DNA from: Candidatus Saccharimonadota bacterium
GTDB taxonomy: Bacteria > Patescibacteriota > Saccharimonadia > UBA4664
Direction: 5' to 3'
Assembly (NCBI GenBank): GCA_019352195.1
Contig: JACAFG010000005.1
Coordinates: forward strand, 156,287-220,286
DNA length: 64,000 nucleotides
Shown here: one piece after another, positions 4,545 through 42,019 of the stretch
Layout: each line of letters begins with the position of its first letter
Position numbering within the stretch: position 1 is the stretch's first letter
Made by a program: the position numbers and the translations under genes
Notes under the pieces: model-generated
The model's input: the letters and a program-made list of their open reading frames with translations, nothing else
What the model was told of the DNA's origin: nothing
Databases searched by the model: none

Positions 4545-6389
4545 TTAACTAAGCCGTCGATCGGTTTTGTGAGCTTCAGGCTGAAGTTCGGGGACAGGCA
4601 TGGCGATAGGGGTAACGGGGACTACAGGCGGCGGAACCGTGGGAACTTGGGCCACGGCTGCGGCCGCCGGCATGACGCGGGCCGCAGCTTCGCCGTCGGC
4701 GGAGGCGGCTTCGGCGGAGGCGGCAACTCGGACGAGCTCTTTGGCTTCCGCCTCGCTTAGGCGCGGTAACGAAATATGGAAGGTAGAGCCCTTACCTGGC
4801 TCCCCTTCGACCCATATCCGTCCGTTAAACAATTCCACCAGGGTGCGGCATAAGTATAATCCAAGTCCGGTACCACCAATGGTGCGGGTAGCCGAGTTGT
4901 CGATGCGATAAAACTTTTGAAACAAATGCGGAATATCCTCTTTGGCAATACCAACCCCGGTGTCGGCGACGCTAATCTCGACCGCTTTATTATCGCCGGC
5001 CAGGCTGACGGTAATACCGCCCTCGGCCGTAAACTTGATTGAGTTATCGATGAGGTTCATCACGACCTCTCGGAGCCGCTCGCTGCTCGCGCCGACATAG
5101 TAGATCGGCGAAATTTGTTTACCAGCGCTGGAGGCAAGTTGTAGTACCAAAGTGAGATTTTTCTTCGCGGCTACAAATTGCATGTCGCCGACCGCGCCTT
5201 CGAGGAGCTTACCGACATCGACTGGTTCAATTTTACCGATGAGCTTACCCTCTTCGGCTTTGGTCACACTTAGAAGGTCGCGGAAGAGTTCGCCGAGATG
5301 CTGAATAGTCTCATGGGCCTTGGTGAGATACTTCATGGCGCGGTCGTCGATGGTAGCGACATTGGCGTTCATGGCAAGCGATATATAGCCTTCGATGGCA
5401 GCCACTGGGGTACGCATTTCGTGTGAGGCTGTACTGACAAATTCCTCTTTTTGACGCTCCACGGCTTTTTCGCGACTGATATCACGAAACAGCGCAATGG
5501 CGCCCGTGACATGACCGCTGGAATCGGCGATCGGCGAAACCGACAAACTGAGTTGAATTTTGCGGCCCGCGTGAGTGGTCATAACGAGATCATCGCGGAC
5601 CACCAGTTGATTGGTCGTAATGGCAGCGGTAAACGGATCCGAACCGGCAATCAGTTCGTGCTCGTCAGCGGTGTGGAGCTGAAGCACCAGGTTGTAATCG
5701 ATGCCAACCGCGGTGTCTTGATCCCAGCCGGTCAGGAGGCCGGCCGCCTTGTTAAACAGGCCAATTTTGTTACTGACATCGACCACAATAACGCCTTCGC
5801 CGATGCTGCCCATGAGTACCTGCGCCTTGAGCTGCTCTTCACTGAGCTTACCCGACAACGACGCGAGCTTGGTGGTAGCAGCGGCGGCTCGCCGTGAACG
5901 CCGATGGACCCATTCGGCCAGAGCGCCGGCGGCTAGGGTAATAAATAGTTCAACGGAATGATCGCCCAGATTGCGTCCATTGCTAAGAATGAAAGCCCCG
6001 GCAAAGTAAGCGAGCGTAATCCCGAGCACAGCCAAGGTTTCGTTAGCGCCAAAGACGCCGGCGCCCACGATGGCTAGCAGCCATAAGGCGTAATAAGGTG
6101 AATCGAGACCGCCCGTTGAGATAATGACCAAAATAAAATTGATGGCAACGAGCACCGTGAGGATCATGGTCGAGCCGGCACGCCATTTTTTGCTTAAGAG
6201 TTGATGCAGCGAGATAAAGTAGCCCACCACTGCCAAGCCAAGCAAGGCAGTTGCAAGTGACAGGCCAGTGTCGCTTAAAAGCGACGGCCGTAGCCCGTAC
6301 ATTGCAAAAATGACAACGGCAACTGTGCCCGATGCCACCGCTAAAATACGGCCAAGGAGGATGAGATTTCGCTGTTGTTGATCCACCAT
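4545..6389 (-). CDS. membrane sensor histidine kinase (TM-PAS-HisKA-HATPase_c, Pro/Ala-rich tail)
   Basis: H-box SHEMRTP, N/G1/G2 boxes (DNSIKFT, DTGVGI, GGTGLGL); ~6 N-terminal TM helices. Confidence 0.85.
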   Translation of the reverse strand: MVDQQQRNLILLGRILAVASGTVAVVIFAMYGLRPSLLSDTGLSLATALLGLAVVGYFISLHQLLSKKWRAGSTMILTVLVAINFILVIISTGGLDSPYYALWLLAIVGAGVFGANETLAVLGITLAYFAGAFILSNGRNLGDHSVELFITLAAGALAEWVHRRSRRAAAATTKLASLSGKLSEEQLKAQVLMGSIGEGVIVVDVSNKIGLFNKAAGLLTGWDQDTAVGIDYNLVLQLHTADEHELIAGSDPFTAAITTNQLVVRDDLVMTTHAGRKIQLSLSVSPIADSSGHVTGAIALFRDISREKAVERQKEEFVSTASHEMRTPVAAIEGYISLAMNANVATIDDRAMKYLTKAHETIQHLGELFRDLLSVTKAEEGKLIGKIEPVDVGKLLEGAVGDMQFVAAKKNLTLVLQLASSAGKQISPIYYVGASSERLREVVMNLIDNSIKFTAEGGITVSLAGDNKAVEISVADTGVGIAKEDIPHLFQKFYRIDNSATRTIGGTGLGLYLCRTLVELFNGRIWVEGEPGKGSTFHISLPRLSEAEAKELVRVAASAEAASADGEAAARVMPAAAAVAQVPTVPPPVVPVTPIAMPVPELQPEAHKTDRRLS

Positions 6390-6491
6390 GATGCTTACGC
6401 TTAAGTATGCTCGGCTCAGCCATAATTGGCAAGCCTGAACCTAGACAGTGCTGCCTAAAGCTGTTAACGTATTATGGTCTTTGCGGACTGT

Positions 6492-6567
6492 GGTCCCGTC
6501 GTCTAGCGGTTAGGACATCCCCCTCTCACGGGGAAGATCAGGGGTTCGAATCCCCTCGGGACTACCA
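6492..6567 (+). tRNA. tRNA-Glu (anticodon CTC)
   Basis: cloverleaf GGTCCCG..TTCGAAT..CGGGACT-A-CCA; anticodon loop CTCTCAC between CCCC/GGGG stem. Confidence 0.8.
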
Positions 6568-6595
6568 GAAATTATTTTGGGCTCTGCGTAGCCAT

Positions 6596-7171
6596 TTAAA
6601 TAGACAATGTATTTCGAATATTGCGAAGCTCTCTCTCGATGCCGGCGTTATTTTGCTGGTTAACGTAGAATGACAGACCCGAAATAGGCAGGGCTCGAAA
6701 CCGAAGATTTACCTTGTGAACCAGGTTTTTGTCGGCGCTGTAGGCACTCAATGCAGCGTTGCGGATGGTGTCATCCCATAGGTTGCTAAAATCCTTAGAC
6801 TGGTCATAGTACCTAGCGTCTCCAAAGTCGATGACCCCGATTTGGTCGTGAGTATCAATGAGGATGTTATTTAGCAGCAAGTCTCCGTGACAAAATTTAG
6901 GTACGTACCCAAGTTTTGTTATTTCCTCGGGCAGCTCTTTATAGTAAAACCGTTTGAGCACTGCTCGCTCCGTTTTTGTGAATGCCGCCTCTATATACGC
7001 TAAGCCTCGTTGGTAATCATCTTGATATTTGGCAATTTCTTGCTGGAGCGTAGTATGCGGCATTTCTGTAGGCTTGAGCTCATGGAGTTGATCTAAAAAT
7101 CGTCCGAGAGAGGCTCCGATCTGCTCTTTTTGAGGTGTAGTAAGCTGCGTTATGCGGCTCTTAATACTCAA
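6596..7171 (-). CDS. aminoglycoside/choline-kinase-like phosphotransferase (APH family)
   Basis: catalytic HGDLLLNNILID and DFGDA motifs. Confidence 0.7.
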   Translation of the reverse strand: MSIKSRITQLTTPQKEQIGASLGRFLDQLHELKPTEMPHTTLQQEIAKYQDDYQRGLAYIEAAFTKTERAVLKRFYYKELPEEITKLGYVPKFCHGDLLLNNILIDTHDQIGVIDFGDARYYDQSKDFSNLWDDTIRNAALSAYSADKNLVHKVNLRFRALPISGLSFYVNQQNNAGIERELRNIRNTLSI

Positions 7172-7471
7172 GCCTGGGACGCCGATATATCCAAACCAGG
7201 CGGACTGCGGGCCTTCCCATTTGACGATAGGGGTTCGAAGCCAAAGGCGTACTGACTCAAGCAGGTTTAGGACAGCGATTTCTTTCTTGTATTTTTTGCA
7301 GCTACATCTGTGCGCGGGAACTTGAAGATGTATTCATTATCATTGATGGTGTATGCGCGACTATCCCCCCCTCGGTGATGAGCTGGATGCTGCTATTACT
7401 GTTAAGTTTGAGAACACGCTGGATGGTGGCCGATTCATTTATGATTGCATCTGACTCGGTTTGGTGGGAGA

Positions 7472-7813
7472 TCAAGAAAAGAACTCCCGCAGTCCATGGA
7501 GTACTTGCGCGCCCGTCAATGTGTCTACTTGGCCAATTCGACTCATCAAGCGCTGCTTGTCGATTACCCGTACTTGGTCTGTTGCTGCCTGACCGTCCTG
7601 GCCGCCAAATGTCAGGTTTGTCCTTGCCGTGTATTGATGCCTGGAGCTCGTCATCGGAACGACAACGACAGTGTTGAGATGACGATTTGCTTCGTCTGGT
7701 GACACGATGATGCAAGGCCTGGTTTTTTGGAATTCTGAGCCTAAGCTGGGATCGAGTGGAACGGTCCAAATATCGAAACGCTTGGCTACCATTGCCATTC
7801 GCTCTTGTCCCAC
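7472..7813 (-). CDS. mazF: MazF/PemK-family endoribonuclease toxin
   Basis: RGDIW-like (KRFDIWTVPLDP), RPCIIVSPD, VVVVPMTS motifs; overlaps antitoxin gene. Confidence 0.8.
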   Translation of the reverse strand: MGQERMAMVAKRFDIWTVPLDPSLGSEFQKTRPCIIVSPDEANRHLNTVVVVPMTSSRHQYTARTNLTFGGQDGQAATDQVRVIDKQRLMSRIGQVDTLTGAQVLHGLREFFS

Positions 7814-8067
7814 TCAGATGCTGGTTGCTCACCGATGAGGAGGCTATCCTCGCCGTTTTTGGCCATTTGTACGTAGGACTCTTCCCGGCCCACGCGGGTA
7901 TGTTGTAATGGGCGAATTACTAGCTCGTTATGAACCGTTATGAGTTCGACTTCTCCGCTCAAGCCCGTCTCATCAAGAGCTTTTTTTGGTAGTCTAATCC
8001 CCCGGGAATTACCTATTTGGATAATTTTGGCGGTTGTCTTCATGCACCGAGAATAGCTTGTAGACAA
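7786..8067 (-). CDS. mazE: MazE/AbrB-type antitoxin (SpoVT/AbrB swapped-hairpin)
   Basis: IGNSRGIRLPK motif; immediately upstream of mazF. Confidence 0.75.
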   Translation of the reverse strand: MSTSYSRCMKTTAKIIQIGNSRGIRLPKKALDETGLSGEVELITVHNELVIRPLQHTRVGREESYVQMAKNGEDSLLIGEQPASEWDKSEWQW

Positions 8068-8159
8068 TGTAATTACAAGTAGTTCCGTCTAACTATTACG
8101 CTCATCGCCGATGCCAAGTTCCTCGAGTCGATCACTCAATTTGGTCAATCTGGGCCATA

Positions 8160-8212
8160 ACGGGTTCCACAATTGGGACGTTGGGTCTACTAATGCACTT
8201 ATGCTTGTTACG
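8160..8212 (+). repeat. ~47-bp interspersed repeat copy A (GTTCCACAATTGGGACGTTGGGTCTACTAATGCACTTATGCTT)
   Basis: about 89% identical to copy at 9365-9416; shares ACTTATGCTT tail with island repeat family at 28-44 kb. Confidence 0.8.
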
Positions 8213-8693
8213 TCCGTGGTGTTTATTCTTCTATGAAGCGCTTGTTATTGAGCATATCAGTGGGTATATCGCCATTGGCCGGAATTTCGGCAATCAAATT
8301 CATCTATGTCGACCAGCCTGCATTCAAGGCTGAATTATAAGTGTGCTTCAAGGATCCACTTTGTGAGCCTTCGCCCAACCTCCTAGTCGGTTATCCATGG
8401 GCAATAGATAATTACGACGATAGCTCTAGTACGCTGCAAATACTGTCATGGGTAAGCCGATCTGGTGAAATGTATGGCCAGAGTCCAACACGCTTCTGGG
8501 TCGGTGCGCTGGGTAACTTTTTGCTTTACGGGACAATTTCCTTTGGCTGCCAAAACTACTACGCAAGAATAAATAAACTCCCCTTTTCTTTAGCGGTACA
8601 TTTTGTGCCAGTGCACCACTTCTGCTCTGATCTCCTTCCGACACGATGACAATAGGTTTACTTGTTCAAACATTCGTTTTGATGCGCTCGGTA

Positions 8694-8984
8694 TTACTTT
8701 CGGTATTCTTTGCTATGCCATACTCGAATGACCACAGGGATGCCTTCGGTTTCAAGCATATATCTAAGCACATAGGCTCCAGCGCCAAAGGCCACAAATA
8801 ACTCACGTCGGCCAGTGTCATCCGGCATGGGCCGTCCCAAGCGAGGCGAGGTAGCAAGCAGTCGTGAACCCTGTAGGATACAATCAGCTGCACGGGTGGC
8901 GGCTTCAATGTCTTTGTCTTTTAAGAAGGAGTAAAGCCGCTCGACATCAGCGATTGCTTCAGGAAGCCATTTTACTTTGGCCAC
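8694..8984 (-). CDS. parE: ParE/RelE-family type II toxin
   Basis: plasmid-stabilisation ParE fold signature (..VERLYSFL.. ..IRVWHSKE..); overlaps upstream RHH antitoxin. Confidence 0.7.
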   Translation of the reverse strand: MAKVKWLPEAIADVERLYSFLKDKDIEAATRAADCILQGSRLLATSPRLGRPMPDDTGRRELFVAFGAGAYVLRYMLETEGIPVVIRVWHSKEYRK

Positions 8985-9241
8985 GAAGTTTCCTTGTTCT
9001 GGGTGAGCTCAGTCAGCCAGTTTTCGACTGTTTCGCCATCGACGGCATTGCCGGTCGTGAGGTAGCGATTCCACCTGGCCATATCGTCAGATCTTTCGTT
9101 CTCGTAATGCTCTTCATGATCCAGATATTTTTCAATCGCTGTGCGCATCAACCAGTGTGATGATCGGCTTTTCTTTTCCGCCAACGCTTTAAGCCTTGAG
9201 AGTGTTTTGTCGTCTAGTTTTATGCCCTGGGTAGTGGCCAT
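8972..9241 (-). CDS. parD: ribbon-helix-helix (CopG/ParD-like) antitoxin
   Basis: RHH N-terminus (IKLDDKTLSRLKALAEKKSRS); start at internal ATG 9239-9241. Confidence 0.65.
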   Translation of the reverse strand: MATTQGIKLDDKTLSRLKALAEKKSRSSHWLMRTAIEKYLDHEEHYENERSDDMARWNRYLTTGNAVDGETVENWLTELTQNKETSWPK

Positions 9242-9364
9242 TGATCTTCTCCCTAATGATTGAATGGTAGCGCTTTTCGCAACCGAACGCAACCCGATCG
9301 AAAGCCTTCATGTGATGCCGAGTTTTACTAGACACTCGCTCATTTGAACTAAACCAGGCCGTAG

Positions 9365-9416
9365 CGTGTTCCACAATCGGGACGTTGGGACTACCAATGC
9401 ACTCGTGCTTATATTA
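9365..9416 (+). repeat. ~47-bp interspersed repeat copy B
   Basis: GTTCCACAATCGGGACGTTGGGACTACCAATGCACTCGTGCTT; direct repeat of copy A flanking the parDE cassette. Confidence 0.8.
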
Positions 9417-10053
9417 AGACTCTGCGGAGCTTTGTATCATAGTTAACATAAATTATTTTAGATTGTCGCTCATATTGCAGCGATTTGGCCAATCGGGTGA
9501 AAGTATGCTTGTTGTAAGATGCACGGTTTTAACGAATGTTGATGTTCGTCGGCATTGAACCGCGACAGGTGCCGGCGTTCGTAGAACTCTCCTGTCACCA
9601 AATGACTTTTTAATCATAAGCGTTTTGGCAGTGCCAAGTAACGTTTTTTCCTTGGCGAAGACAAAAACTAGGTTAATTCATCTATCTCAAAACTTAGATC
9701 GAGCAAACATTATGAGGCTCTTCATTGCCCATGCGGGTCCTGCGCCTTGGGCCTTGGCATGCGCAGACTAATTTTCCGTAAAATACCCACCGCCGGAATC
9801 ATTGAATTATGGCTATCAAAATACCCACTTATACCACTTTGTGCCATCGTTGAGCCCTAAACGATTCCCCCTATCATGAAAGGGCGAATTTGTTATGTCA
9901 TCTAAAGAACATGCTATTTTCGTTTAACATTTTTAGAATATCTACCAATTGTACGTGGGTGGGTAGTAAGGTAGTCTTCATCCTCGTGTGGCAGATATTT
10001 GTTGCACTCGGAGGGTGGTATTTATGCATTTATTGTGCCAACTCTCTGATAAG

Positions 10054-10060
10054 AAAGGAG
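10054..10060 (+). promoter_or_regulatory. Shine-Dalgarno AAAGGAG
   Basis: 4 nt upstream of ATG at 10065. Confidence 0.6.
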
Positions 10061-10064
10061 CAGA

Positions 10065-10706
10065 ATGAGTAATATTATTGCAGGCACCGTTGCCACTATT
10101 GGCGCGAGTTTGCTATTGGCCTCGAGCGGTGGGCACGCGGTGACACAGCCGTCCCCTACCCCGGCGGTTGTAACGCGCGCGCCCGTACCCACTCCGGCGC
10201 CAAAAACTTACACGGTGGCAAGTGGCGATAGTTTATCAGCTATTGCCTCAACCGAAGGGCTCGATTCGTGGCGACCATTATGGAACGTTAATACTGGTAT
10301 TTCCGACCCTAATCTAATCTACCCGAACCAGCAACTGACGATCCCGACGGCCCCTACGGTTGACCGCCCAGTTCCAGCTGAACAGGCTGCGACCGCAGCC
10401 GCGCTCGACCAAACCAGCGCTTACAATACGGCGGTGATTCAGCGCTCGGCTCCGACGCACGCAGTCACGTACGCAGCGGGTAGTGCAGGCATCTTCGCCC
10501 GCATCCGCGTCCGCGAATCCGGTGGCAACTACGCCGAGAACACTGGTAACGGTTATTACGGGGCTTACCAATACGATCTTGGTACCTGGGGTAATTACGA
10601 CGGTTACGCCCGCCCCGACTTGGCTCCGCCCGCAGTCCAAGACGCCAAAGCGGCCGCTACCTATGCCGCCCGCGGCTGTTCGCCCTGGCCCAACACCTGT
10701 TATTAG
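10065..10706 (+). CDS. secreted LysM + Rpf-like transglycosylase domain protein
   Basis: signal peptide; LysM (YTVASGDSLSAIAS); C-terminal ESGGNYAENTGNGYYGAYQY..GCSPWP resuscitation-promoting-factor-like motif. Confidence 0.7.
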   Translation: MSNIIAGTVATIGASLLLASSGGHAVTQPSPTPAVVTRAPVPTPAPKTYTVASGDSLSAIASTEGLDSWRPLWNVNTGISDPNLIYPNQQLTIPTAPTVDRPVPAEQAATAAALDQTSAYNTAVIQRSAPTHAVTYAAGSAGIFARIRVRESGGNYAENTGNGYYGAYQYDLGTWGNYDGYARPDLAPPAVQDAKAAATYAARGCSPWPNTCY

Positions 10707-10897
10707 ACAGGCCCATACCAAACAATGTCTTCATGCGGGAAAGAATGTAAAAAAAGAGCCCTTAGACCCCCTGATGAGCTGAACAATAACATATTTTACG
10801 AAAAGTTACAATACTTGCTGGAGAATACTAATAGGATTAAATAATGTTTGCAGGCTTATCTGCGGATATTGAAATAAGTTAATGCTTAACAGAGCTA

Positions 10898-11272
10898 TTA
10901 ACTAAGAATTTCTTTTACTACCGCCATGAGTTGACTGGGAATAATATCGGCCTTGACCAGATAGCCGTCAGCTTGAGATCTAATGGCTTCTTGGCTAGTT
11001 TTGTCTTGAGCGAGATTGGTAAGAATGATTATGCGCGTGGCATTAAAGCCTGGATTTTTACGCAGCTCGTGCAACACTTCAATGCCGGATTTACCAGGCA
11101 TCATAATGTCGAGCAAGATGAGGTCGTAAGACTTGGTGGCGCTTTTAGCTAAGGCTTCGAGGCCGTCGTAGGCAAAATCAACTTCGAAACCGGCCTTTAT
11201 AAGGAGCCTGGCGTACATTTCGCTAATCGGACGGTCGTCTTCAACGAACAGAATGGTCTTTGATCCAGCCAT
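10898..11272 (-). CDS. single-domain response regulator (receiver only)
   Basis: ILFVEDD..LLDIMMP..K; 124 aa; ATG at 11270-11272. Confidence 0.8.
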   Translation of the reverse strand: MAGSKTILFVEDDRPISEMYARLLIKAGFEVDFAYDGLEALAKSATKSYDLILLDIMMPGKSGIEVLHELRKNPGFNATRIIILTNLAQDKTSQEAIRSQADGYLVKADIIPSQLMAVVKEILS

Positions 11273-25720: not shown

Positions 25721-25806
25721 GCCGCTGTGGTGGAATGGTAGACACAAGGGACTCAAAATCCCTCGAGGGCAACTTCATGTCAGTTCGACTCTGACCAGCG
25801 GTACCA
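25721..25806 (+). tRNA. tRNA-Leu (anticodon CAA), long variable arm
   Basis: GCCGCTGTGGTGGAATGGTAGACAC..anticodon loop CTCAAAA..T-arm GTCAGTTCGACTCTGAC..CAGCGGT-A-CCA. Confidence 0.85.
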
Positions 25807-25823
25807 GCAATGATCAAACTAAA

Positions 25824-25853
25824 ATAACGCCTTTGTTAAGGCGTTATTTTAGT
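25824..25853 (+). terminator. hairpin + T-run after tRNA-Leu (ATAACGCCtttgttaaGGCGTTATTTT)
   Basis: 8-bp stem; same hairpin recurs at ~29050 and ~34640. Confidence 0.65.
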
Positions 25854-26020
25854 TCTGTAAAAGGTGGGTGCCACTGCGTATATCGGAAAGTCATTATTCG
25901 AATCAAGTGTAGTAATTTTACAAGCTAAGCTTGCACTTGCATTAAGTGGATTAAATTCGGTAAAAGTTATATAATATTCAACGTCCATTCGTTGTTTGAC
26001 ATCGGTGTAGCAGAAATGAG

Positions 26021-28150
26021 TTGATTTATGTGTATCAGCCATACCCATACCAGGTCCCGGTTTTACATGCCATCGACTTAGCCCGTAAGTCGGGCAAAAG
26101 AAGTGCTCTCGTTGTCTTGGCCTCTGGTCTTGGCAAAACGGTAGTAGCAGGATTTGATATTCGTCGCTTCATGAGCAGCCACCCTGGGGCAAAGGTCTTG
26201 TACCTGTGCCACCAGAACTAAATACTGCGGCAGGCTCGTAGGGAACTAGAGGAGAATATCCTGCCTAACAAGTACAATCATGGGTTCATGATTGGCGACG
26301 ATCGGGCGATCCATGGCGTCGATTTGTTGTATGCGTCATTCCAAACGATGCATCGCCATCGTCGACGTTTTCGGTCCGATGAGTTTGACTACGTTGTAGT
26401 CGACGAAAGTCACCACGGTCCAGCGCCCACGTATCTTCCGACACTGGAATACTTCACCCCGAAGTTTCTGTTGGCTATCACCGCTACTCCAGACCGTATG
26501 GATCAGCAAGATATTGGTGAAATTTTTGGCGATCCGATCTTCAGGATCGAGCTAGAAGACGCTTGGGCACGCGGTTTGCTCGCGCCAGTTGATTACCGTG
26601 TAATGACCGACGAATGGCAAAATTTGGAGGTACTCGACACGCCAATTGGGAAACTGAGCATAAAACAGCTCAATAAGACCATTTTTGCGACCAAGCGTGA
26701 TGAAGAGATTGTCCGCATCATTGAGGGCAGGATCATGCACCTCTTTGAGCCGCGGGTAATGATTTTCTGCCCGCGTATTAGTCATGCCGAGCACATTGCT
26801 GACCTCATGGAAGGCGCGACCGCTATTCACTCCATGCTTACGAGCACCGAGCAAGAAGATCGGCTAAACGGTTTTCGTGATGGTAAGTACCGTGTCGTCA
26901 GCACCGTCGACATGTTTAACGAGGGCATTAATGTTCCAGAAGCGAATGTCATCGTGTTCCTACGCTCAACGGCTTCGCGTACGATTTTTTTCCAGCAACT
27001 GGGCCGTGGGCTCCGCAAGAGCAAAACAAAGAAACATGTCCTGGTTCTTGATTTTGTAGCGAACTGTGACCGTTTGCTTATACTCGATGAACTCAGGGGC
27101 GGCGTTAACGAGCGGCTCACCAAGCTGCGCTCAAGGACGCCCGGAGGCGATACACCAATCGTGATCGACTCAGGGGATTTTATATTCGACGAGGCCGTAC
27201 GTGACGTACTTAAGATACTCGCATCGATCAGGGGTAGGTACTCGAACGAGGAGCTGATAGAGATTTTCCGAGCCAAGGCGCTAGAGCTTGGGCGCAATCC
27301 GACCGGTGATGATGTCGACGCCGATCCGGCGTTGCCAAGTAGGGCGCTGTACTATAAGCGATTCGGTAATTGGAGCAAACTGCTGCGACTCGTAGATCTA
27401 GACGCGGCCTTCTTCAGGTCTGATGATCGTCTGATTCATGAACTCAAGAAACTAGCGGACCAACTGGAAAGAGCGCCCTCGACCAAGGACGTTAAGGATA
27501 CACATTGGATGGCGGCACCAAAGACTTACTACCAGCGATTTGGCAAGAGTTGGTCTGAGGTTCTCGCTAAAATCGGTCTTACTCCTGCTAGAAAATTCCT
27601 CTCCGACAAGGAGCTGCTCGATAAGTTGCGAGCCAAGTATCAAAGTTGGACTGAGCAATTTCTTACCATGGCGAATATAGATGCCGATTCGGAGATGGCT
27701 CATTCTTCGACATACAGGGAGAGGTTTGGCTCGCTAGATAGCGCGTTATTGCGAGCGGGTGTCACGGAAGATATTCAAGTTCAACACCAAAAAGCGGTGC
27801 TGACAAAGCGTCTGAAAGAGCTTGGAGACCGACTCGGCCGTACACCTGGGCGTCGAGACGTCGATAAAGCCTCAGATATGGCGGACAGCAGCACTTATCG
27901 GAAGCTGTTCGGAAGTTGGAACAGTGCACTAGGTACCGCTGGATATCCGCAAATTCGGGTGCGTCGGACCCCAGAGATGATGCTTGCGGACCTCCGAATG
28001 CTCGTCGATAAATACGGTAAGTTGTCGCAACCTATCATCAATTCCGAATCAGGAGTTGCTTCATCATCCACGTATGCATTGAAGTTCGGCTCAATAGCGA
28101 ACGCTGCTAGGCTTGCGGGAGTTGAACCGAATAACTCTCGTATCAAATAA
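26021..28150 (+). pseudogene. DEAD/DEAH (SF2, res-subunit-like) helicase fused to 5 tandem ~50-aa HEAR-like repeats; interrupted by in-frame TAA at 26219-26221
   Basis: ORFs 26021-26221 and 26288-28150 are in the same frame; Q-motif PYPYQ, Walker A ASGLGKT, then stop, then DESHH (motif II), helicase C-domain; C-terminal repeats ..LGRxP..S.TY..RFGSW..AL..AG. Confidence 0.7.
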
Positions 28151-28304
28151 TTTCCGGTCATGTGTTAGCATGACGTAATTCTTGATGACCACATCGAGAA
28201 AGCCGGTACGATAACCCGGTGCAGTCACTAAATGTTATTTAGTCTGATGAGTCTGAAAAGACGAAACTGCAAATCACCCGCTACTTTTTGGCGAGTACTA
28301 TTTT

Positions 28305-28353
28305 AGTTCGAACGTCGTTGACGGTGGTGTACCAAAGAACTTATGCTCATACG
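28305..28353 (+). repeat. island repeat copy C (AGTTCGAACGTCGTTGACGGTGGTGTACCAAAGAACTTATGCTCATA)
   Basis: member of GTTCGAAC..GGTGGTGTACCA..ACTTATGCT family. Confidence 0.8.
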
Positions 28354-28369
28354 AGAGTCTCTCCACAAA

Positions 28370-28630
28370 CTAGTAGTGGTAACGACAGGCAAATATTCGA
28401 ATTTCTTCATTTATCACTGTGTAAACGAGACGATGCTCATCTGTTATTCTTCTAGACCAAGATCCAGCCAAGTCTTCGCGTAAAGGCTCAGGCTTGCCTA
28501 GGCCTTCAAATGGGCTCCGCTGGCAGTCTCTAACTAGTTGATTTATCTTCTTGAGAATTTTTTTGTACTGAGATTGCCAATAGACGTAATCATCCCAACC
28601 GTCTGGAGTAAAACTAATTTGTCTGCTCAT
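28370..28630 (-). CDS. yoeB: YoeB/Txe-family toxin
   Basis: WDDYVYWQ..PFEGLGKPEPL..WSRRITDEHRLVY..ACRYHY near-canonical YoeB. Confidence 0.9.
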   Translation of the reverse strand: MSRQISFTPDGWDDYVYWQSQYKKILKKINQLVRDCQRSPFEGLGKPEPLREDLAGSWSRRITDEHRLVYTVINEEIRIFACRYHY

Positions 28631-28881
28631 TATTCAGAAATAGCGTGAGATGATACATTCCCGCTCGCTGCGTCGGCAAACCCGCGACGCAAACGCTTGG
28701 CATTATTTTTATTTCCAAGCAAATAGTCAGTTTCTACTTTTGAGTTGTATTGCTCGAGCGGCATAGCGACGATCGTGCTGCCATCAGTACGAGTAATTAG
28801 TAAAACATCCTGATCGTCAATCACCTGATCAAAGTACTTCTTTGAATCTTTGCGAAAATTAGAAATGGTAGTTACTTTCAT
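28630..28881 (-). CDS. yefM: YefM/Phd-family antitoxin
   Basis: Phd/YefM N-terminal fold (TTISNFRKDSKKYFDQV..LLITR); 1-nt overlap with yoeB. Confidence 0.85.
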   Translation of the reverse strand: MKVTTISNFRKDSKKYFDQVIDDQDVLLITRTDGSTIVAMPLEQYNSKVETDYLLGNKNNAKRLRRGFADAASGNVSSHAISE

Positions 28882-29004
28882 GGTTGTCTCCTTGTATGTT
28901 AAATTGTACGCTAAAACGTACGTTAATACAATGAATTTAGCACGGTTCGTAAATTATGGGCTCTCAGTATAAAAGCCTACCCATTCTTTTCGAACCAATA
29001 GTTT

Positions 29005-29083
29005 GGTTCGAACGTCTAGCACGGCGGTGTACAGCGCAGATCGAACTAAAATAACGACTTTGTGTGAAGGCGTTATTTTAGTT
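29005..29083 (+). repeat. island repeat copy D plus copy of tRNA-Leu 3' flank hairpin
   Basis: GGTTCGAACGTCTAGCACGGCGGTGTACAGC..GATCGAACTAAAATAACGACTTTGTGTGAAGGCGTTATTTTAGTT. Confidence 0.8.
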
Positions 29084-29302
29084 TTTGGAATAGTGGGTAC
29101 CAACCAATACCTTGTAGTTCCAAAACGGAAAGAGCCCCCGGCTGCGGAGGATTTCCTATGCTGGAGGCTATAAGTCGAAGGCCAGTTGTGGGTCTTGATT
29201 GCCACGGCTAATCTCCGTGACATATTTGGGTAATTCCTTGCTCGTCGGATAGTAATGCTGACGGCAGGCACAGCGTGATTCACCCAACCACGACTCATAG
29301 CA

Positions 29303-29848
29303 TTAGTGAGTTTTGCTTAACGGTTTGCCGCATTGAAGACAGAGCACACGACCTTCGTAGCGAAATATGGTTGGTAGATCACCGGCGGCCGCTTTTTGTA
29401 GCAGAACATCGTCAACATCAACACCAAAGTAAGTAGCGATTTTTTCTGGCTGAAAGAAAACAAGATTTTGCAGCCAGGTTTTTGGTAAGAATAGCTCTCT
29501 GACGATTGAATTGACGAACGCTTCTAGGAGCCAGTACTGCCTAGAGGAATATACATCCTTTATTCCAAAACTCTTAATGAGGTACCAGTGAACGATCTCA
29601 TGGACAACCGAGAAGCGAAACTCGTTTTGACTAGAGTCGCTTTTTACCTTCACCACATAACCTTGGCCGCTATGAAATAGCGCTGCAGGTCCAGCTAAAT
29701 CTGACGAAATAGTAAGTCCGAGGCCTAACAATTCACACATGTGGATCGGGTCGAGAATAAATCCTTGGTCTCGGCGCAATACTTTCGAACGAGAAAGAGC
29801 GTCCAAATGTGTCGCCGAGCCATAAGCTAACACCTCTTCTCTTGCCAC
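29303..29848 (-). CDS. ImmA/IrrE-family zinc metallopeptidase (DUF955) with C-terminal zinc ribbon
   Basis: HEIVHWYL (HExxH) motif; C-terminal CLQCGKP..; no partner HTH gene seen. Confidence 0.65.
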   Translation of the reverse strand: MAREEVLAYGSATHLDALSRSKVLRRDQGFILDPIHMCELLGLGLTISSDLAGPAALFHSGQGYVVKVKSDSSQNEFRFSVVHEIVHWYLIKSFGIKDVYSSRQYWLLEAFVNSIVRELFLPKTWLQNLVFFQPEKIATYFGVDVDDVLLQKAAAGDLPTIFRYEGRVLCLQCGKPLSKTH

Positions 29849-29980
29849 TTTAGCCTCCTGTACCGTTTGGTTTTTAAGGGACGTGGTTACGTAATCAGTT
29901 TATTGAGCGCGGACGAATCTATCTAGTCAACAATTCTTGCCTTAATTTGCTTTTAGTAAAATCTCGTTGCGCCTAAGTAC

Positions 29981-30030
29981 AGTTCGAACATCCCCCACGG
30001 TGGTGTACCATTTGGATCGAACTCGACATA
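29981..30030 (+). repeat. island repeat copy E
   Basis: AGTTCGAACATCCCCCACGGTGGTGTACCATTTGGATCGAACTCGAC. Confidence 0.8.
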
Positions 30031-30421
30031 GCGAAGCTAAAGATAGTAGGCTGATTTGATGATGGTTAAGTAAACTGCGATAGAGCGCTTTTGCTTAATC
30101 AAGTTTTCATTTGCATTAGTATTGGATCGATCGAGCAGATTCATGCAATCGCCCCTAGCTATTCGCAGAAAGTATCACCATACTGATGAGCACGCTAGTA
30201 TAAGGTTCTACTCAATGAAGCGCCGGGATCACAAGTACCGCAACGAATCGGGTAAAATCACGGTATAATTCTTGGTTATGCCTACCATCATTCTGAACTT
30301 GCTGCTGACACTGCTTTTGAATTCCATACTTCATCATCGATTCTATAGCAATCTCAGGATTAGTTGCCCTATCAATGCACGTTAGGCATGGCGCATAGTA
30401 ACAACCTTATGAGGAGCTTTC

Positions 30422-30958
30422 ATGACCGAATTACCACCCGAGATAAATAGTTTTGTCGCTGATACTCGCGAAGACTTAATTGTAAATGCCATCGAAATAT
30501 TTGACACTATCAAGCAGTCACTGCTCGTGCTAGATAAAAATCTTACAGTCGTACTGGCTAATGCTTCGTTTTACCGAAACTTTCAATTTACCAAAAAGGA
30601 AACTGAAGGTACCCGTATTTATGATGTCGGCAACGGACAATGGCAAAGTGCTCGGCTCAAATCATTGCTCGAAAAAATTATTCCAGAACAAAAAGAAGTG
30701 AACGACTACGAGCTTGTACATACATTTGATCACGTTGGCGAGCGGGCAATGCTGCTGAATGCGCGAGAAATTATTCGTCAAGACAATCGCCAAGAAGTTA
30801 TTTTGCTGGCCATCGAGGATATAACAAATAAGAAGTTTATGGAGCAGCAGACAAAGGATGCCGAATCGCGCATCAACAAGATTCTCGAGAATTTGGTTGG
30901 GTCCTCCGAACGATACACGGGTGGGACAGGTTCCCCATTGGCCAAGCCGCTGAAATGA
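30422..30958 (+). CDS. stand-alone PAS-domain protein
   Basis: PAS fold pattern (..LVLDKNLTVVLANASFYRNF..); no output domain; translationally coupled to next gene. Confidence 0.6.
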   Translation: MTELPPEINSFVADTREDLIVNAIEIFDTIKQSLLVLDKNLTVVLANASFYRNFQFTKKETEGTRIYDVGNGQWQSARLKSLLEKIIPEQKEVNDYELVHTFDHVGERAMLLNAREIIRQDNRQEVILLAIEDITNKKFMEQQTKDAESRINKILENLVGSSERYTGGTGSPLAKPLK

Positions 30959-31332
30959 CCGACCGACGTTCTTCAAACGCGGTTTATATGCGCGAAGATC
31001 TATTGTGGATCGAGGTGGTGGGCGATCAAAACGGTGAAACAATTCGCGCTATGGGAGAGCTTATTGACGCGCAGATTACTATCTTGCGTAGGGCTCATAA
31101 GCCCGTATTAGTACTTGATGACCTAACGCGTATCGGCAATGCCAATACCGATGCCCTGAAAGGTGTGGCCATTTTAGCTCGGATGCTCGACTATGATCTC
31201 GCCGCCATGCTCGACAAAAAATCGGCGCTGATGCGCGGAGGCACTAACCTCCTGCTCACATCCATTGGGAGAGCCGATGCGCGTTATTTTTCTGACCGAG
31301 ATAAAGCTATGAATTGTCTTCGCAACGGATAA
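30955..31332 (+). CDS. STAS-like (anti-sigma-antagonist fold?) small protein
   Basis: 4-nt overlap with PAS gene; weak STAS-like pattern (VLVLDDLTRIGNANTDALKGVAILARML). Confidence 0.35.
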   Translation: MTDRRSSNAVYMREDLLWIEVVGDQNGETIRAMGELIDAQITILRRAHKPVLVLDDLTRIGNANTDALKGVAILARMLDYDLAAMLDKKSALMRGGTNLLLTSIGRADARYFSDRDKAMNCLRNG

Positions 31333-31391
31333 TTTCAGTATTTTGCGCTAAACATAAGAGGCACTCGAGAGAGTGCCTCTTATGTTTAGAA

Positions 31392-31580
31392 ATTGGTCGG
31401 GGCGGGACTGGTCATGGAAGACGTCGCGGCGGTGTGGCTTACTAACTAACAAAGCAACGGGCTCAAACGACGGACTTAACTAAATCAGACTCTATTTGAA
31501 CCGGACATTCTTAACTCGATGTGCCACATCTAGGAGCTAATTTATATCCTCCTGTGTTCCGAAATTAATATATCAAATTA
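31392..31580 (+). repeat. ~190-bp repeat, copy 1 (GGTCGGGGCGGGACTGG...CTAGGAGCTAATTTAT..CCTCC...TATCAAAT)
   Basis: ~85% identical to 37666-37850; directly preceded by hairpin 31357-31380. Confidence 0.8.
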
Positions 31581-31647
31581 ATTTATTGTGAATCAAGTAT
31601 TTATATACAGTCAGGCGGTGGCTAATTTATACTCGATGTGGCTTGCG

Positions 31648-31695
31648 CATTTCGGGCGTCGCCCACGGTGGTGTACCAATGTTCTTATGCTTATA
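31648..31695 (+). repeat. island repeat copy F
   Basis: CATTTCGGGCGTCGCCCACGGTGGTGTACCAATGTTCTTATGCTTATA. Confidence 0.8.
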
Positions 31696-31820
31696 ACGGC
31701 CTATCAAGGGCGCTATTTGCGTATTAAGCTTCTATAATGAACAACAGTGGACATTTGAAGCGAGCTATTGAGCTAGTAGTCCAATACTGAGCGGACTCAC
31801 TATAAGCGCCGAATTAAAAA

Positions 31821-31849
31821 AGTGCCCTCATGGTTGAGGGTACTTTTTT
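31821..31849. terminator. bidirectional terminator hairpin
   Basis: AAAAAAGTGCCCTCatggttGAGGGTACTTTTTT. Confidence 0.7.
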
Positions 31850-31856
31850 ATTGTTT

Positions 31857-32039
31857 TTAGCTTGTTCTCGGATGACCATGAGCGGCGTATTCGTCGAGTA
31901 GCTCTTTCTGCTCGATGTTTGAGTGAGCAGCAGCCGTTTCGATAAGGCGCTTCTGATCCTTCGCCTTTAACTCGTAGAAATGATTGTCGGTCTTGGGGGG
32001 AGAGAAAAGTTTAGAAAGTTTGCGTAGAATGCGTGTCAT
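31857..32039 (-). CDS. small protein downstream of zeta-like kinase (possible cognate partner)
   Basis: 60-aa ORF overlapping zeta-like gene by 4 nt. Confidence 0.4.
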   Translation of the reverse strand: MTRILRKLSKLFSPPKTDNHFYELKAKDQKRLIETAAAHSNIEQKELLDEYAAHGHPRTS

Positions 32040-32737
32040 TTGAGCTTCTCCTCTAGCAGCTCCCTAGTATAGGGCGCTTTTAGATAATGATCAACGTTTG
32101 TAATATTTATTACGTATTTATATTGTAACGTATCAGCGTTCTTATTAATGAGGTATAAGTAAATTTTGTTTCCGAACTCTTCTTTGCAACGATTTACATT
32201 TTCTTTTGCCGAAAAGTATGCATTGATGAAGGTTTCTTTTGGAACCATCCGACCTTCGCGTAGCTCACGCGCTTTGGTTATGTCCCAAGCTACTAAGGGA
32301 TCTTGGTGCACATAAAGAATTACAGGTTGTCGGCCGTGTTTTATTGCACGCTCAATGTTTTTGTAAGCTAAGTCGTATCTAGCAAACGTACCGTCAAAGA
32401 GAAAACTAAGTTGCTTGTTTAGTGCATGGTCTAAAATCTTTTGAACCGCTAACGATGCTGCGCCTTGAACTTCATCAGAGTTATTCCCGGTGTAACCCGG
32501 TATAGTTGCTCGGATATCATCAGGATCTATTCGTAATATACCGCTTACGCCATGAACTTCTTTGTAGGCTTGTAAAAAGTTGCGAGACCACTCTGTTTTG
32601 CCTGCGCCTGGCGATCCGGCCATGAAAAACGTTTCTGGATGAGGGTTGGGAGTGAACTTTTGAGGATCAACAAATTGCTCGACTAAGCTGCGCTTGTTGG
32701 CTTTGACGAATTTTACGGCTTCTTCAGATAAACTCAT
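32036..32737 (-). CDS. zeta-toxin-family P-loop kinase
   Basis: Walker A GSPGAGKT, ..IDPDDIR..P.Y.., ..LFDGTFARYD collinear with PezT/zeta. Confidence 0.65.
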   Translation of the reverse strand: MSLSEEAVKFVKANKRSLVEQFVDPQKFTPNPHPETFFMAGSPGAGKTEWSRNFLQAYKEVHGVSGILRIDPDDIRATIPGYTGNNSDEVQGAASLAVQKILDHALNKQLSFLFDGTFARYDLAYKNIERAIKHGRQPVILYVHQDPLVAWDITKARELREGRMVPKETFINAYFSAKENVNRCKEEFGNKIYLYLINKNADTLQYKYVINITNVDHYLKAPYTRELLEEKLK

Positions 32738-32778
32738 GTTCTGATAATATCAGTTTTTACATGCGCCACTTGAATCCT

Positions 32779-32826
32779 AGTTCGAACGTCGCCCACGGTG
32801 GTGTACCATTAAACTTATGCTTCGAA
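32779..32826 (+). repeat. island repeat copy G (near-consensus)
   Basis: AGTTCGAACGTCGCCCACGGTGGTGTACCATTAAACTTATGCTTCGAA. Confidence 0.85.
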
Positions 32827-33412
32827 TGCTGTACTTAGTTGTCAGTGTTAAAACGCACTAATGAATTCTCCTCGTACTCGTCTCACGCTAATTATGTTTA
32901 TTCTAGTGGCAGTTGTACTTGGTCGGTTGGCTACTCAAATTGCCAACTACTCCATCTATCGAATACAACCTGGTGCCTCGTCCTGCCAAAGAATTTCTGG
33001 GCCTAGCCTATGCCCTATCCTTGAGTCGTCATCGAGAAATTACGGATAGCCGATAGTTACAAGTACTGTTCTAATCAAACCTAAAATTTCGGATGGGGCA
33101 TACCAATTTTCGGAGGAGGCCTTTGAACGCTCCCCGGCCTTACGGCCAGCTTTCTCTCCGTATATTAATGCCTTTGAAGACGACTGGATATTATGGAGCG
33201 TCTTTTTTCTCTTAGCCTTAATAGTTATGCGGTCTCATCAAAAAAAACCGTCGCTCGCTTTAATGTAGTCTTCTTATTTGGTGCATTGCACAATATTAGC
33301 AGCGTGCCGTAGCGGTGACCGTAATAGCTTATACAAACCCTCAAGTGGCGAAATATAGAGCTTATTTTCACAGTCTCCCATGGAAGTCTATTTCTTTTGA
33401 TATTATTAGGTC

Positions 33413-33808
33413 ATGAATACTCTCGTAAAGCGGCTTCGGGACGGGCAGGATCTCATGTTAGAGATAACTAAACTCGTCGGGGAAAATCACGTACAGGCAG
33501 GTATCATCCTGTCGGCTGTAGGCAGTCTAAAAGAATCAAATATACGCGTACCTATTATCGACGGCGCCGTGAAATACATTAATCCGACTAATTTAGAGAT
33601 CGACAACTTGCATGGAACGGTGTCGGTAAATGGCTGCCACCTTCATATTTCTGTGTCTGATATCGACGGTAAAGTTATGGGCGGCCATTTAAAAACCGGT
33701 TGCATTGTTCGAACAACATGCGAGCTGGTGATTGGAGTATTGGACGATCATTCATTCCGACGAGAGCCCGATTCCGATACTGGTTACGATGAGCTGGCGG
33801 TCACTTGA
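33413..33808 (+). CDS. DUF296 / PPC-domain protein
   Basis: ..GIILSAVGSLKESNIR..GHLHISVSD.. pattern typical of PPC/DUF296. Confidence 0.55.
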   Translation: MNTLVKRLRDGQDLMLEITKLVGENHVQAGIILSAVGSLKESNIRVPIIDGAVKYINPTNLEIDNLHGTVSVNGCHLHISVSDIDGKVMGGHLKTGCIVRTTCELVIGVLDDHSFRREPDSDTGYDELAVT

Positions 33809-34002
33809 TTCGCTGCTGACGAGGTTACATCGCATTTCGAACGTCTTTTACGATGGTTTTCCAGCAGCCATCGAACCAAAACAGCGCATTTCTAGTGTCT
33901 TTCTCTTGTGCATTCAAAAATAAACTTGTTTAGATTGAGGGAGTTAGTTGTCGGAGCTTTAACCTTGACCGCGACTAACTGTGTAGCTATAATGTAATTA
34001 CT

Positions 34003-34239
34003 ATGAAGGCATCAATCGTCACCATCGGCAATTCAAAGGGTATACGCATTCCGAAGCCCCTGCTCGAGGAAAGTGGCTTAAGCGGTGACGTTGAATTAAA
34101 AGCTGTTAAGGGTGAAATCAAGATTGTTGCAGCAACACGCGATCCGAAGATATCGGAAACCATGCTTCTTTCCGAAAAAGTGCTTGCACGAGACTGGCTA
34201 CGCCCCGAAGAGGATGAGGCATGGTCAAGTTTACAGTAG
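34003..34239 (+). CDS. mazE: MazE/AbrB-type antitoxin
   Basis: IGNSKGIRIPKPLLEESGL; paralogue of 7786-8067 product. Confidence 0.75.
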   Translation: MKASIVTIGNSKGIRIPKPLLEESGLSGDVELKAVKGEIKIVAATRDPKISETMLLSEKVLARDWLRPEEDEAWSSLQ

Positions 34240-34553
34240 GGCAAGTCGTCACAAGTGCCTTTCCATTTTCTGATCTCACGACACAGAAGTTGAGGCCAGC
34301 ACTAGTTGTTGCGATCGGGGACTTCGAAGACATAATTTTATGCCAAATCACCTCAAAAACGTATTCGAGCTCTAATCCTATCAAGTTAACAGCTGCAGAT
34401 TTTGTCGAGGGTAGCCTGCCGGTGGATAGTTTTATACGTCCTGACAAATTATTTACGGCCGATCAATCAATCGTACATTAAGCATATGGCAGAGTCAGTG
34501 ATGCAAAGCTGCAGCACGTTCTGGCCGATATTCGCCAGTTATTTACGACCTAG
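34221..34553 (+). pseudogene. mazF: MazF/PemK toxin with in-frame TAA at 34479-34481
   Basis: N-terminal 86 aa (..RPALVVAIG..ITSKT..) then TAA; the same frame continues AYGRVSDAKLQHVLADIRQLFTT*, the expected MazF C-terminus. Confidence 0.65.
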
Positions 34554-34586
34554 ACGTAGTGGTCGAGTATCTTGAAGTTGAATTGC

Positions 34587-34662
34587 AGTTCGAACGTCGC
34601 CCACCGTGGTGTACCAGCAATAATCAAACTATGATAACGCCTTTATTAAGGCGTTATCTTTG
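34587..34662 (+). repeat. island repeat copy H plus second copy of tRNA-Leu 3' flank
   Basis: AGTTCGAACGTCGCCCACCGTGGTGTACCA + GCAATAATCAAACTATGATAACGCCTTTATTAAGGCGTTAT (compare 25807-25850). Confidence 0.85.
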
Positions 34663-34749
34663 TATATATCGCTTTGGGTCCCAAGTATTATTCAAAACTT
34701 TTTTTAACGGAAAGAGCCCCCAGGCGCGGAGGATTTACGGGCTTGAGGG

Positions 34750-35355: not shown

Positions 35356-35439
35356 CCTCAGTTAGGGCGGATAGAGTAGTATATAGTAACATTAATTTAA
35401 CTATAGTGCAACATTATTGCGTTGTAATAATCGTATCGA

Positions 35440-35471
35440 AGTTCGAACGTCGCTTACGGTGGTGTACCATT
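35440..35471 (+). repeat. island repeat copy I
   Basis: AGTTCGAACGTCGCTTACGGTGGTGTACCATTG. Confidence 0.8.
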
Positions 35472-35780: not shown

Positions 35781-35785
35781 CCCCG

Positions 35786-42010: not shown

Positions 42011-42019
42011 CTTGCGCTG

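Follow-up and report, generated by a model that had tools for sequence, protein, structure and literature searches.

Genes and repeats downstream of tRNA-Glu

A tRNA-Glu(CTC) gene in contig JACAFG010000005.1 of a Candidatus Saccharimonadota bacterium is followed by a small island of toxin–antitoxin genes, in which two short direct repeats, A and B, carry copies of the 3' end of the tRNA. The locus was analysed within a 64,000-nt stretch of the contig, referred to as the window, to which all coordinates apply unless another locus is named. The tRNA gene (6492-6567, + strand, CCA encoded) was identified with ARAGORN and scores 64.6 bits against the Rfam tRNA model. The repeats copy its final 10 nt, GGGACTACCA. 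A histidine kinase gene adjoins tRNA-Glu(CTC) here and in many relatives, and the nearest relatives of the window's kinase all come from metagenome-assembled genomes of Saccharimonadia/Saccharibacteria. Downstream, the tRNA carries a trailer termed G2, GAAATTATTTTGGGCTCTGCGTAGCC (6568-6593, + strand), which consists of an AT-rich run and a small hairpin.

The genes of the island all lie on the - strand, and their domains were assigned with Pfam. A first-pass annotation, made from the sequence alone, had placed an APH-like kinase, mazEF and parDE in this order after tRNA-Glu. The domain matches agree with this order, with the correction that the APH-family phosphotransferase gene (6596-7171; PF01636, E = 1.4e-17) is a fragment. 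Its open reading frame (ORF) covers only profile positions 87-218 of 239, indicating an N-terminal truncation with the C-terminal two thirds of the domain kept, and the gene call of the source assembly at this place is only 121 aa long. A PemK/MazF toxin gene (7472-7813; PF02452, E = 1.5e-26) overlaps the gene of a MazE-like antitoxin (7786-8067, or 7786-8043 in the source assembly), whose Pfam match is weak (PF04014, E = 1.1e-4; 22.5 bits against a cut-off of 24.7). Farther from the tRNA, the gene of a ParE/RelE-family toxin (8694-8984; PF05016, E = 3.8e-12) overlaps that of ParD, a ribbon–helix–helix antitoxin of the CopG type (8972-9292, or 8972-9241 in the source assembly; PF01402, E = 1.2e-7). 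Each overlapping pair combines a toxin with an antitoxin domain (PF05016 with PF01402; PF02452 with PF04014, the latter weak), and ParDE and MazEF are accordingly named here as predicted type II toxin–antitoxin modules.

Between mazE and parE, an interval of 487 bp (8207-8693, assigned to neither strand) has no Pfam match. The gene calls of the source assembly are consistent with the Pfam layout, and nothing is called between these two genes. A short ORF previously proposed at 8341-8649 was abandoned, as it has no Pfam match, no source-assembly call and no tblastx match in related loci.

Beyond repeat B, a gene-free stretch of reduced GC content (9417-10064, assigned to neither strand) ends at a conserved LysM-transglycosylase gene. 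It measures 648 bp and not the approximately 770 bp initially given, and its AT-richness is moderate, with 40-46% GC compared with 52-60% in the flanks; the island itself has 44-50% GC. The part that follows a small hairpin (9431-10064) showed no significant ORF, similarity or further tRNA 3'-end copy. Remnant genes were sought in 7172-7471, 8213-8693 and 9417-10064, and none of these intervals gave a blastn or tblastx match in the fetched related loci. The gene-free stretch is possibly a decayed terminal cassette. A candidate terminal junction near 9935-9960 (CTACCAATTGTAC) amounts to a 6-mer match and is not claimed. In an Rfam search at permissive thresholds over 6000-11000, the tRNA was the sole match and no RNA family was found at A or B. 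A scan for promoters and terminators was uninformative, and a simple promoter scan returned nothing within the sites.

The parDE unit had been described as bracketed by two copies of one element, and alignment confirmed this. The cores of A (8164-8206) and B (9368-9410) are identical at 38 of 43 positions, and weaker homology extends upstream (8110-8206 against 9314-9410, 97 nt at 73%), with 1204 nt from start to start. A and B are direct, not inverted, repeats. Each consists of a 29-nt left arm, which starts with GTTC and ends with the tRNA-Glu 3' terminus, and a 14-nt right-arm tail, ATGNACTTATGCTT (consensus in A and B, ATGCACT(T/C)(A/G)TGCTT). As in tRNA-targeting islands, a direct repeat of the 3' segment of the tRNA is found at the boundary, in the orientation of the tRNA.

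The left arm of site A (8110-8192, + strand; 29-nt core 8164-8192, GTTCCACAATTGGGACGTTGGGTCTACTA) is a degenerate tRNA-Glu 3' end. It terminates in GGGTCTACTA, in which CTACTA replaces CTACCA, and matches the tRNA-Glu terminus at eight of 10 positions. The right arm of A is a tail termed T1, ATGCACTTATGCTT (8193-8206, + strand), and the same tail precedes a parE homologue in a related locus (L082). From its position, the T1 tail of site A is read as the start of the parDE cassette. The left arm of site B (9314-9396, + strand; 29-nt core 9368-9396, GTTCCACAATCGGGACGTTGGGACTACCA) ends in a tRNA-Glu 3' end that contains the exact terminal 10-mer (9387-9396). Its right-arm region (9397-9430, + strand) opens with a T1 tail, ATGCACTCGTGCTT (9397-9410), which is followed by an AT-rich spacer and by the small hairpin mentioned above, GACTCTGCGGAGC (9418-9430).

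The locus had been interpreted as a tRNA-anchored mini-island with a parDE cassette. The bracket of two copies stands, while A and B are taken here for junctions in an array of several cassettes and not simply for repeats produced around a single parDE insertion. The region is better read as an APH'/mazEF cassette, a parDE cassette and a gene-free remnant, in which each tail would belong to the following cassette and each left arm to the preceding one.

Sites of the same family at tRNA-Leu and in related genomes

The window contains a second island, next to tRNA-Leu (25806-43760), in which 12 sites of a Leu type bound cassettes. Their cargo includes YoeB/YefM, a zeta toxin, ParE, GNAT acetyltransferases, and HAD, HIT, PCC, DUF218 and PAS/STAS-like proteins. 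The Leu-type repeat has a 29-nt left arm, GTTCGAACGTCGCCCACGGTGGTGTACCA, which resembles the end of tRNA-Leu. To the right of this arm stands the T1 tail in about half of the sites and a copy of the trailer/terminator of the real tRNA-Leu (GCAATGATCAAACTAAAATAACGCC...) in the others.

The 3' half of A and B had been said to match the tail of the Leu-island repeats, and the match holds when scored against background. Five of the 12 Leu-type sites agree with the 14-nt tail of A and B at 10 or more of the 14 positions, at the same offset after CCA, compared with 0.16% of the 2521 other CCA sites in the window (binomial P about 8e-12). The pattern AATGCACTYRTGCTT, with up to two mismatches allowed, gave four matches against 0.52 expected, and the two extra ones lie exactly after Leu-type repeats. 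A profile hidden Markov model built from the Leu sites alone recovered A with E = 0.003, in an alignment across both arms, and B with E = 0.12. By these sequence comparisons, A and B are related to the Leu-island sites beyond chance.

The proposal that one bounding element serves two tRNAs is correct for part of the site. As aligned, the Glu and Leu loci have nothing in common but the right arm of 14 nt and the 29-nt geometry, and the left arms are specific to their tRNA. All composite sites at the two loci lie in the orientation of the tRNA and between unrelated gene modules, and those of the Leu island flank genes of either orientation and of unrelated functions. A decayed Leu-type site suspected between the APH fragment and mazF (about 7400-7446) was unsupported by the profile search. 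Each of the two target tRNA genes (6492-6567; 25721-25806) terminates in ...TACCA, and the top of its acceptor stem is formed by a G1-U72 wobble, a feature common to all related tRNA-Glu genes of the clade.

Related tRNA-Glu loci (n = 47, or 48 with the window; loci from other genomes bear L numbers) were set in the orientation of the tRNA, and the sequence downstream was searched for its final 12 nt. Copies of this segment of the host tRNA-Glu were found 16 times on the same strand, in 12 of the 48 loci, versus twice on the opposite strand; by our own estimate, about 0.9 copies per strand would be expected. The copied terminus varies with the host tRNA, being GGGACTACCA in the window and GGGGCTACCA in L019. 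The T1 tail is fused directly to real tRNA genes in several relatives, namely to tRNA-Glu(CTC) in L009 and L012, to tRNA-Glu(TTC) in L142 and L143, and to tRNA-Leu(CAA) in L137. Judged by their structure, these fusions are attL-like junctions. The tail also stands behind further 29-nt arms in L012, L013, L014, L082 and L138. Conservation of the right arm in 17 sites is confined to positions +1..+14 after CCA, and is inflated for the part matching ACTTATGCTT, as some of the sites came from a pattern containing it. Nine matches were obtained in a metagenome scan for STACCAATGNACTTATGCTT, of which four are real family members (L137, L138, L142 and L143); the remainder were coding or chance matches, including one inside a glycosyltransferase gene (L145).

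All arrays examined follow one simple grammar, in which each tRNA end or left arm leads into a trailer from a small set. The set comprises the T1 tail, the G2 type (G(N)AATTATTT with a small hairpin) and, as a third type, a long terminator hairpin pairing with ACCA. The G2 trailer is also found in other genomes 3' of real tRNA-Glu genes or of pseudo-3'-end sites. In L086, the copy at 1494-1536 follows a pseudo-3'-end site and is 82% identical to the window's trailer over 44 nt.

When the 47 related loci were searched with tblastn, none of the five island proteins had a match downstream of tRNA-Glu, and the flanking LysM, response regulator and second kinase genes were conserved there by the same method. 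At the same place, the relatives carry an aldehyde dehydrogenase gene, an aminoacyl-tRNA-synthetase-like gene, Gp49/HTH and CopG toxin–antitoxin parts, and IS110-type and IS200-type transposase genes. On this comparison, the locus is a hot spot whose occupancy varies among related genomes. The IS110-family transposase gene of L012 (4466-5446) and the IS200-type Y1 transposase gene of L013 (6195-6677) lie inside tRNA-Glu cassette arrays, the IS200 gene directly after a site composed of a left arm and a T1 tail.

ParE has 1008 homologues at E <= 1e-10, many of them 70-83% identical. The parDE operon of L086 is 80.5% identical in nucleotide sequence to 9283-8694 of the window over 590 nt, and the homology restarts at a site, GTTCCACAATTGGGTCGCATGCCTACTA, about 40-100 nt past the parE stop codon. 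L086 has a second site, GGTTCCAATATTGCCACCTTGGGACTACCA, followed by the trailer type found after the real tRNA-Glu of the window. In L082, a ParE gene whose product is 78% identical is followed by GTTCCAATTCTATGGTAGCAGGACTACTA and ATACACTTATGCTT 30 nt past its stop codon. The 487-bp spacer of the window (8207-8693) is missing from the parDE modules of both loci. Because parE-parD carries the tail in these other contexts, the tail appears to travel with the module, and such movement fits a putative cassette of the form tail, genes, left arm. Orthology was also considered for the APH genes of the window and L086 and was rejected; they have in common only the CHGD catalytic motif.

Another element, of 90-190 nt and with multiple hairpins, was observed after the terminator in L004, L014, L015, L017 (two copies), L023, L041, L045, L047 (two copies) and L050. 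It lies within about 270 nt downstream of tRNA-Glu, or about 2.8 kb downstream in L014. Most copies end in the last 17-20 nt of the host tRNA-Glu, of which L050 and the second copies of L017 and L047 have a degenerate version. Several of its stems show compensatory changes by eye (AAGC/GCTT, GAAG/CTTC, GGAG/CTCC, GATGC/GCATC and GGTGC/GCACC). The element matched no Rfam family, RNAalifold run on 10 copies recovered one conserved hairpin only, and no copy was detectable in the window. It may represent a structured RNA or serve a further cassette family as its element-side arm.

Spacing of the arms and search for a recombinase

The left arms differ from the tRNA ends that they resemble in one regular respect. 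In 20 of 24 sites with a pseudo-3' end, GTTC starts exactly 29 nt before the last base; of the exceptions, two have TTTC at 29 nt, one has the motif at 28 nt and one at 30 nt. The same T-loop motif starts at 24 nt in the real tRNA-Glu and tRNA-Leu. The 24 sites span at least six sequence-dissimilar lineages. The arm of L019 equals the tRNA end with a 5-nt insertion after GGTTC, and the far junction of L008, which is paired with a serine recombinase remnant, has the 29-nt spacing too.

In the attachment sites of serine integrases, the zinc-ribbon-domain motif lies 5 bp nearer the centre in attB than in attP half-sites, and minimal attP sites exceed attB sites in length by about 10 bp (Rutherford et al. 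2013, PMC3783163). The 24/29 rule would be expected if the tRNA end served as a half-site of B type and the 29-nt arm as one of P type.

No recombinase was found in Pfam scans that covered both islands and most of the window's large ORFs. The window, together with about 95 related loci, also supplied 2293 ORFs that were searched with XerD and gamma-delta resolvase seeds, which were approximate and were checked by their matches in unrelated viral contigs. No tyrosine recombinase was found among these ORFs, in a search whose sensitivity was limited by a single XerD seed and a small profile. Two serine recombinases were found. One is a 571-aa large serine recombinase in L042 (1124-2839), with Resolvase, Recombinase and zinc-ribbon domains. 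Its frame enters the tRNA-Glu 3' end by 41 nt on the opposite strand, and a Replic_Relax gene adjoins it. The other, in L008, is a resolvase-domain fragment 42 nt from the tRNA-Glu 3' end, with an attR-like junction 2.4 kb off. No remnant of either recombinase was detected in the window.

The L042-type enzyme family comprises 1589 Saccharibacteria proteins at E <= 1e-20. In three further loci (L146, L147 and L148, about 9001-10716), an L042-type gene again overlaps tRNA-Glu, and the consensus C-terminus of the family equals the reverse translation of the tRNA end. In every case, the L042-type gene extends on the opposite strand into the 3' end of a tRNA-Glu gene, either CTC or TTC. The elements carry Replic_Relax, TraG/TrwB-like, sortase or restriction-modification genes and, by this gene content, look like integrative, possibly conjugative elements. 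The far junction of these large-serine-recombinase elements was not found within 10 kb, and no L042-type relatives were found in viral contigs, where an intact attP was sought. A scan of viral contigs for attP with CCAWWGNACTTATGCTT gave 49 matches, none with a tRNA-like left flank, and these were treated as chance.

Probable origin of the region as a cassette array

The region is probably an array of cassettes that lack a recombinase of their own and were assembled at the 3' ends of tRNA genes by site-specific recombination. The anatomy of the sites, their family membership, their recurrence at two tRNAs and in other genomes, the variable cargo and the lack of a local recombinase are observed; the recombination origin of the array, the class of enzyme and the position of the crossover are inferred. 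The cassettes are likewise regarded as putatively mobile.

Each cassette would be ordered as right arm or tail, cargo and left arm, the left arm being a 29-nt sequence that opens with GTTC and closes with the 3' terminus of the host tRNA itself. Where cassettes abut, the left arm of one would join the tail of the next to give a composite of roughly 47 bp. At the tRNA-Glu locus, the first unit would consist of the tRNA, its trailer, the APH fragment, mazF-mazE and left arm A. The second would comprise a tail, the 487-bp interval, parE-parD and left arm B, and the third a tail and the gene-free remnant, up to the conserved LysM gene. The toxin–antitoxin cargo would stabilise the array, and the recombinase would act in trans, encoded outside the window.

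Within this explanation, a large serine recombinase is tentatively taken as the most likely class of enzyme. It is the leading candidate because the shift between 29 and 24 nt matches the 5-bp attP/attB rule, and because serine recombinase genes abut tRNA-Glu in relatives. With such an enzyme, the composite sites would be attP-like (P/P') and the tRNA end would be the left half-site of attB.

Several results count against an array of cassettes assembled in this way. No empty-site allele, circular junction or strain polymorphism was found. Exact-protein look-ups for strain variants and empty sites matched ParE and LysM to the source assembly only, and a 126-aa response-regulator ORF was unrecorded. 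The tRNA-Glu of the window bears the G2 trailer and not the T1 tail, and no terminal junction was found before the LysM gene, which leaves the array not neatly bounded. No recombinase was present among the window ORFs tested, and the cassette arrays of relatives lack one except in L008 (the remnant) and L042. At tRNA-Glu, the junctions of L042-type elements have a different right arm, without the T1 tail. Conservation of the right arm stops at +14, with no obvious zinc-ribbon motif or dyad symmetry, and inspection of 17 aligned sites by eye revealed no clear dyad. To our knowledge, strict serine integrases recombine only attP with attB, and an array formed by serial insertion would therefore be easier to obtain with a tyrosine recombinase.

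A tyrosine integrase is the main alternative, although we consider it unlikely to have built the array. Successive integrations at the tRNA 3' end would push older elements outward and leave partial tRNA copies between them, and the integrases would since have been lost or would lie elsewhere. Tandem tRNA-targeting elements separated by partial tRNA copies are already known for tyrosine recombinases (bioRxiv 10.1101/2020.12.28.424599). Tyrosine integrases can reuse attL-type sites, which would explain serial accretion, and the 'S-type' sites of the relatives have an identity block of 17-20 nt from the T loop to CCA, typical of tRNA att sites. However, the invariant +5 spacing of GTTC would be left unexplained, and the recombinases seen beside tRNA-Glu are serine recombinases only. 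The seeds that gave matches in control contigs detected no tyrosine recombinase in the window and roughly 95 loci, within the limited sensitivity of that search.

It is very improbable that the sites are hairpins processed as single strands by an IntI-like integrase, an HUH/Y1 transposase or an RNA-guided enzyme whose guide would be the tRNA-identical 3' segment. A small-cassette array rich in toxin–antitoxin genes and devoid of a local recombinase would suit such a mechanism, as would the IS200-type (Y1) and IS110-type transposase genes within the arrays of L013 and L012 and the 17-20 tRNA-identical nucleotides that end the multi-hairpin element. Nevertheless, six sites folded as single-stranded DNA showed no structure above shuffled controls (z = -0.59 to +0.86), and the sites are direct, not inverted, repeats. 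No IntI was found, and the genes situated upstream of the tRNAs encode a histidine kinase and a sortase. The transposases occur in two loci only and resemble ordinary insertion sequences, and the multi-hairpin element is not detectable in the window.

Least credible is the idea that the repeats are promoter or operator DNA of the two toxin–antitoxin operons, or a local segmental duplication, with an incidental resemblance to the tRNA: on the - strand, A and B do sit 70-150 nt upstream of the mazE and parD operons in the same orientation, and their 97-nt homology reaches toward the toxin–antitoxin genes, but the homologous site of L082 and L086 lies past the parE stop codon and not upstream of parD, Leu-island sites flank genes of either orientation and unrelated function, the tail is fused to real tRNA genes elsewhere, B holds the exact 10-nt tRNA-Glu terminus, the left arm co-varies with the host tRNA and the promoter scan was empty in the sites. 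The parE-side site, the lack of folding, the direct orientation and the tail on real tRNAs are the reasons why the regulatory and single-strand readings are poor.

The proposed cassette array shares features with several known systems. As in the tycheposons of Prochlorococcus and in genomic islands, integration would be at tRNA 3' ends with partial tRNA copies between units, and cargo modules and degenerate remnants pile up in a hot spot of a streamlined genome. Unlike tycheposons, the units here measure 0.6-1.7 kb and lack an integrase, a re-spaced arm of 29 nt takes the place of a plain partial tRNA copy, a conserved 14-nt tail is common to sites at different tRNAs, and the host belongs to the Saccharimonadia (Patescibacteria).

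Compared with the att sites of phiC31, Bxb1 and LI-type integrases, the composite sites have a similar conserved span of about 43-47 bp. As in large-serine-recombinase att sites, GTTC lies 5 bp farther from the junction in the element arm than in the tRNA arm (PMC3783163), and genes for such recombinases are present on tRNA-Glu in related genomes. In contrast, there is no large serine recombinase in the window, the conservation of the right arm stops before the expected position of the zinc-ribbon motif, and serine integrases are not known to produce arrays of attP-like sites.

Chromosomal integrons likewise consist of an ordered array of small cassettes, many of them toxin–antitoxin cassettes, with sites in one orientation and the recombinase outside the cassettes. 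The locus described here differs in having neither IntI nor attI, in sites without attC-like folding, in cargo that lies in either orientation with its own upstream regions, and in its anchoring to a tRNA gene. IMEX/pdif modules are also recombinase-less, with short bounding sites that are sometimes tandem and often enclose toxin–antitoxin genes. The tail and the XerD arm of dif both contain TTATG. Sites of the dif type measure 28 bp and have two 11-bp arms, the inner ends of which form a palindrome about a 6-bp centre. However, the sites have no CATAA-N6-TTATG dyad, and the 17 aligned sites show only the right-side TTATG. Their left side is the tRNA end ...TACCA, and they form direct repeats where pdif modules have inverted site pairs.

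The genomes of Saccharimonadia and other Patescibacteria are very small and have few recognised mobile elements, and their gene gain and loss are poorly understood. In the literature consulted, we found no account of integrase-less cassettes below 2 kb in Saccharibacteria or other organisms, nor of a re-spaced 29-nt tRNA-end arm or of a 14-nt tail shared across different tRNA targets. Nothing relevant was found there on such arrays, or on serine recombinases, in Saccharibacteria. The grammar of tRNA end, 29-nt arm and 14-nt tail offers a concrete, testable mechanism for genome plasticity in Saccharimonadia, and a simple sequence signature by which accessory genes can be located in metagenome-assembled genomes. 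If a serine recombinase drives the system, genetic tools would have natural landing pads in the tRNA ends and the 47-bp sites. The organisms concerned became tractable only recently.

A wider reading would make the array part of an integron-like gene-capture system of new design in the Saccharimonadia. A large serine recombinase supplied in trans would move small cassettes, each self-expressed, between the attP-like sites, composed of the re-spaced 29-nt arm and the 14-nt tail, and the 3' ends of tRNA-Glu(CTC), tRNA-Glu(TTC) and tRNA-Leu(CAA). The arrays, stabilised by toxin–antitoxin genes, would be one of the main routes of gene flux for epibionts with such reduced genomes, and the multi-hairpin element of the relatives would have a function within this system. 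In this full form, the proposal is regarded as doubtful.

Two further features were observed in the tRNA-Leu island. Direct repeats at 31392-31557 and 37666-37826, spaced about 6.27 kb apart, share 69 nt at 86% and 61 nt at 93% identity and do not belong to the site family. A local search with Rfam RF00008 identified a complete type III hammerhead ribozyme at 28219-28272 (+ strand; E = 1.4e-9). Its score of 47.4 bits lies below the gathering score of 48.5, and it was missed by the whole-window search at that threshold. The ribozyme is located in the 3' region of a helicase/HNH-repeat gene, approximately 33 nt upstream of the first Leu-type site.

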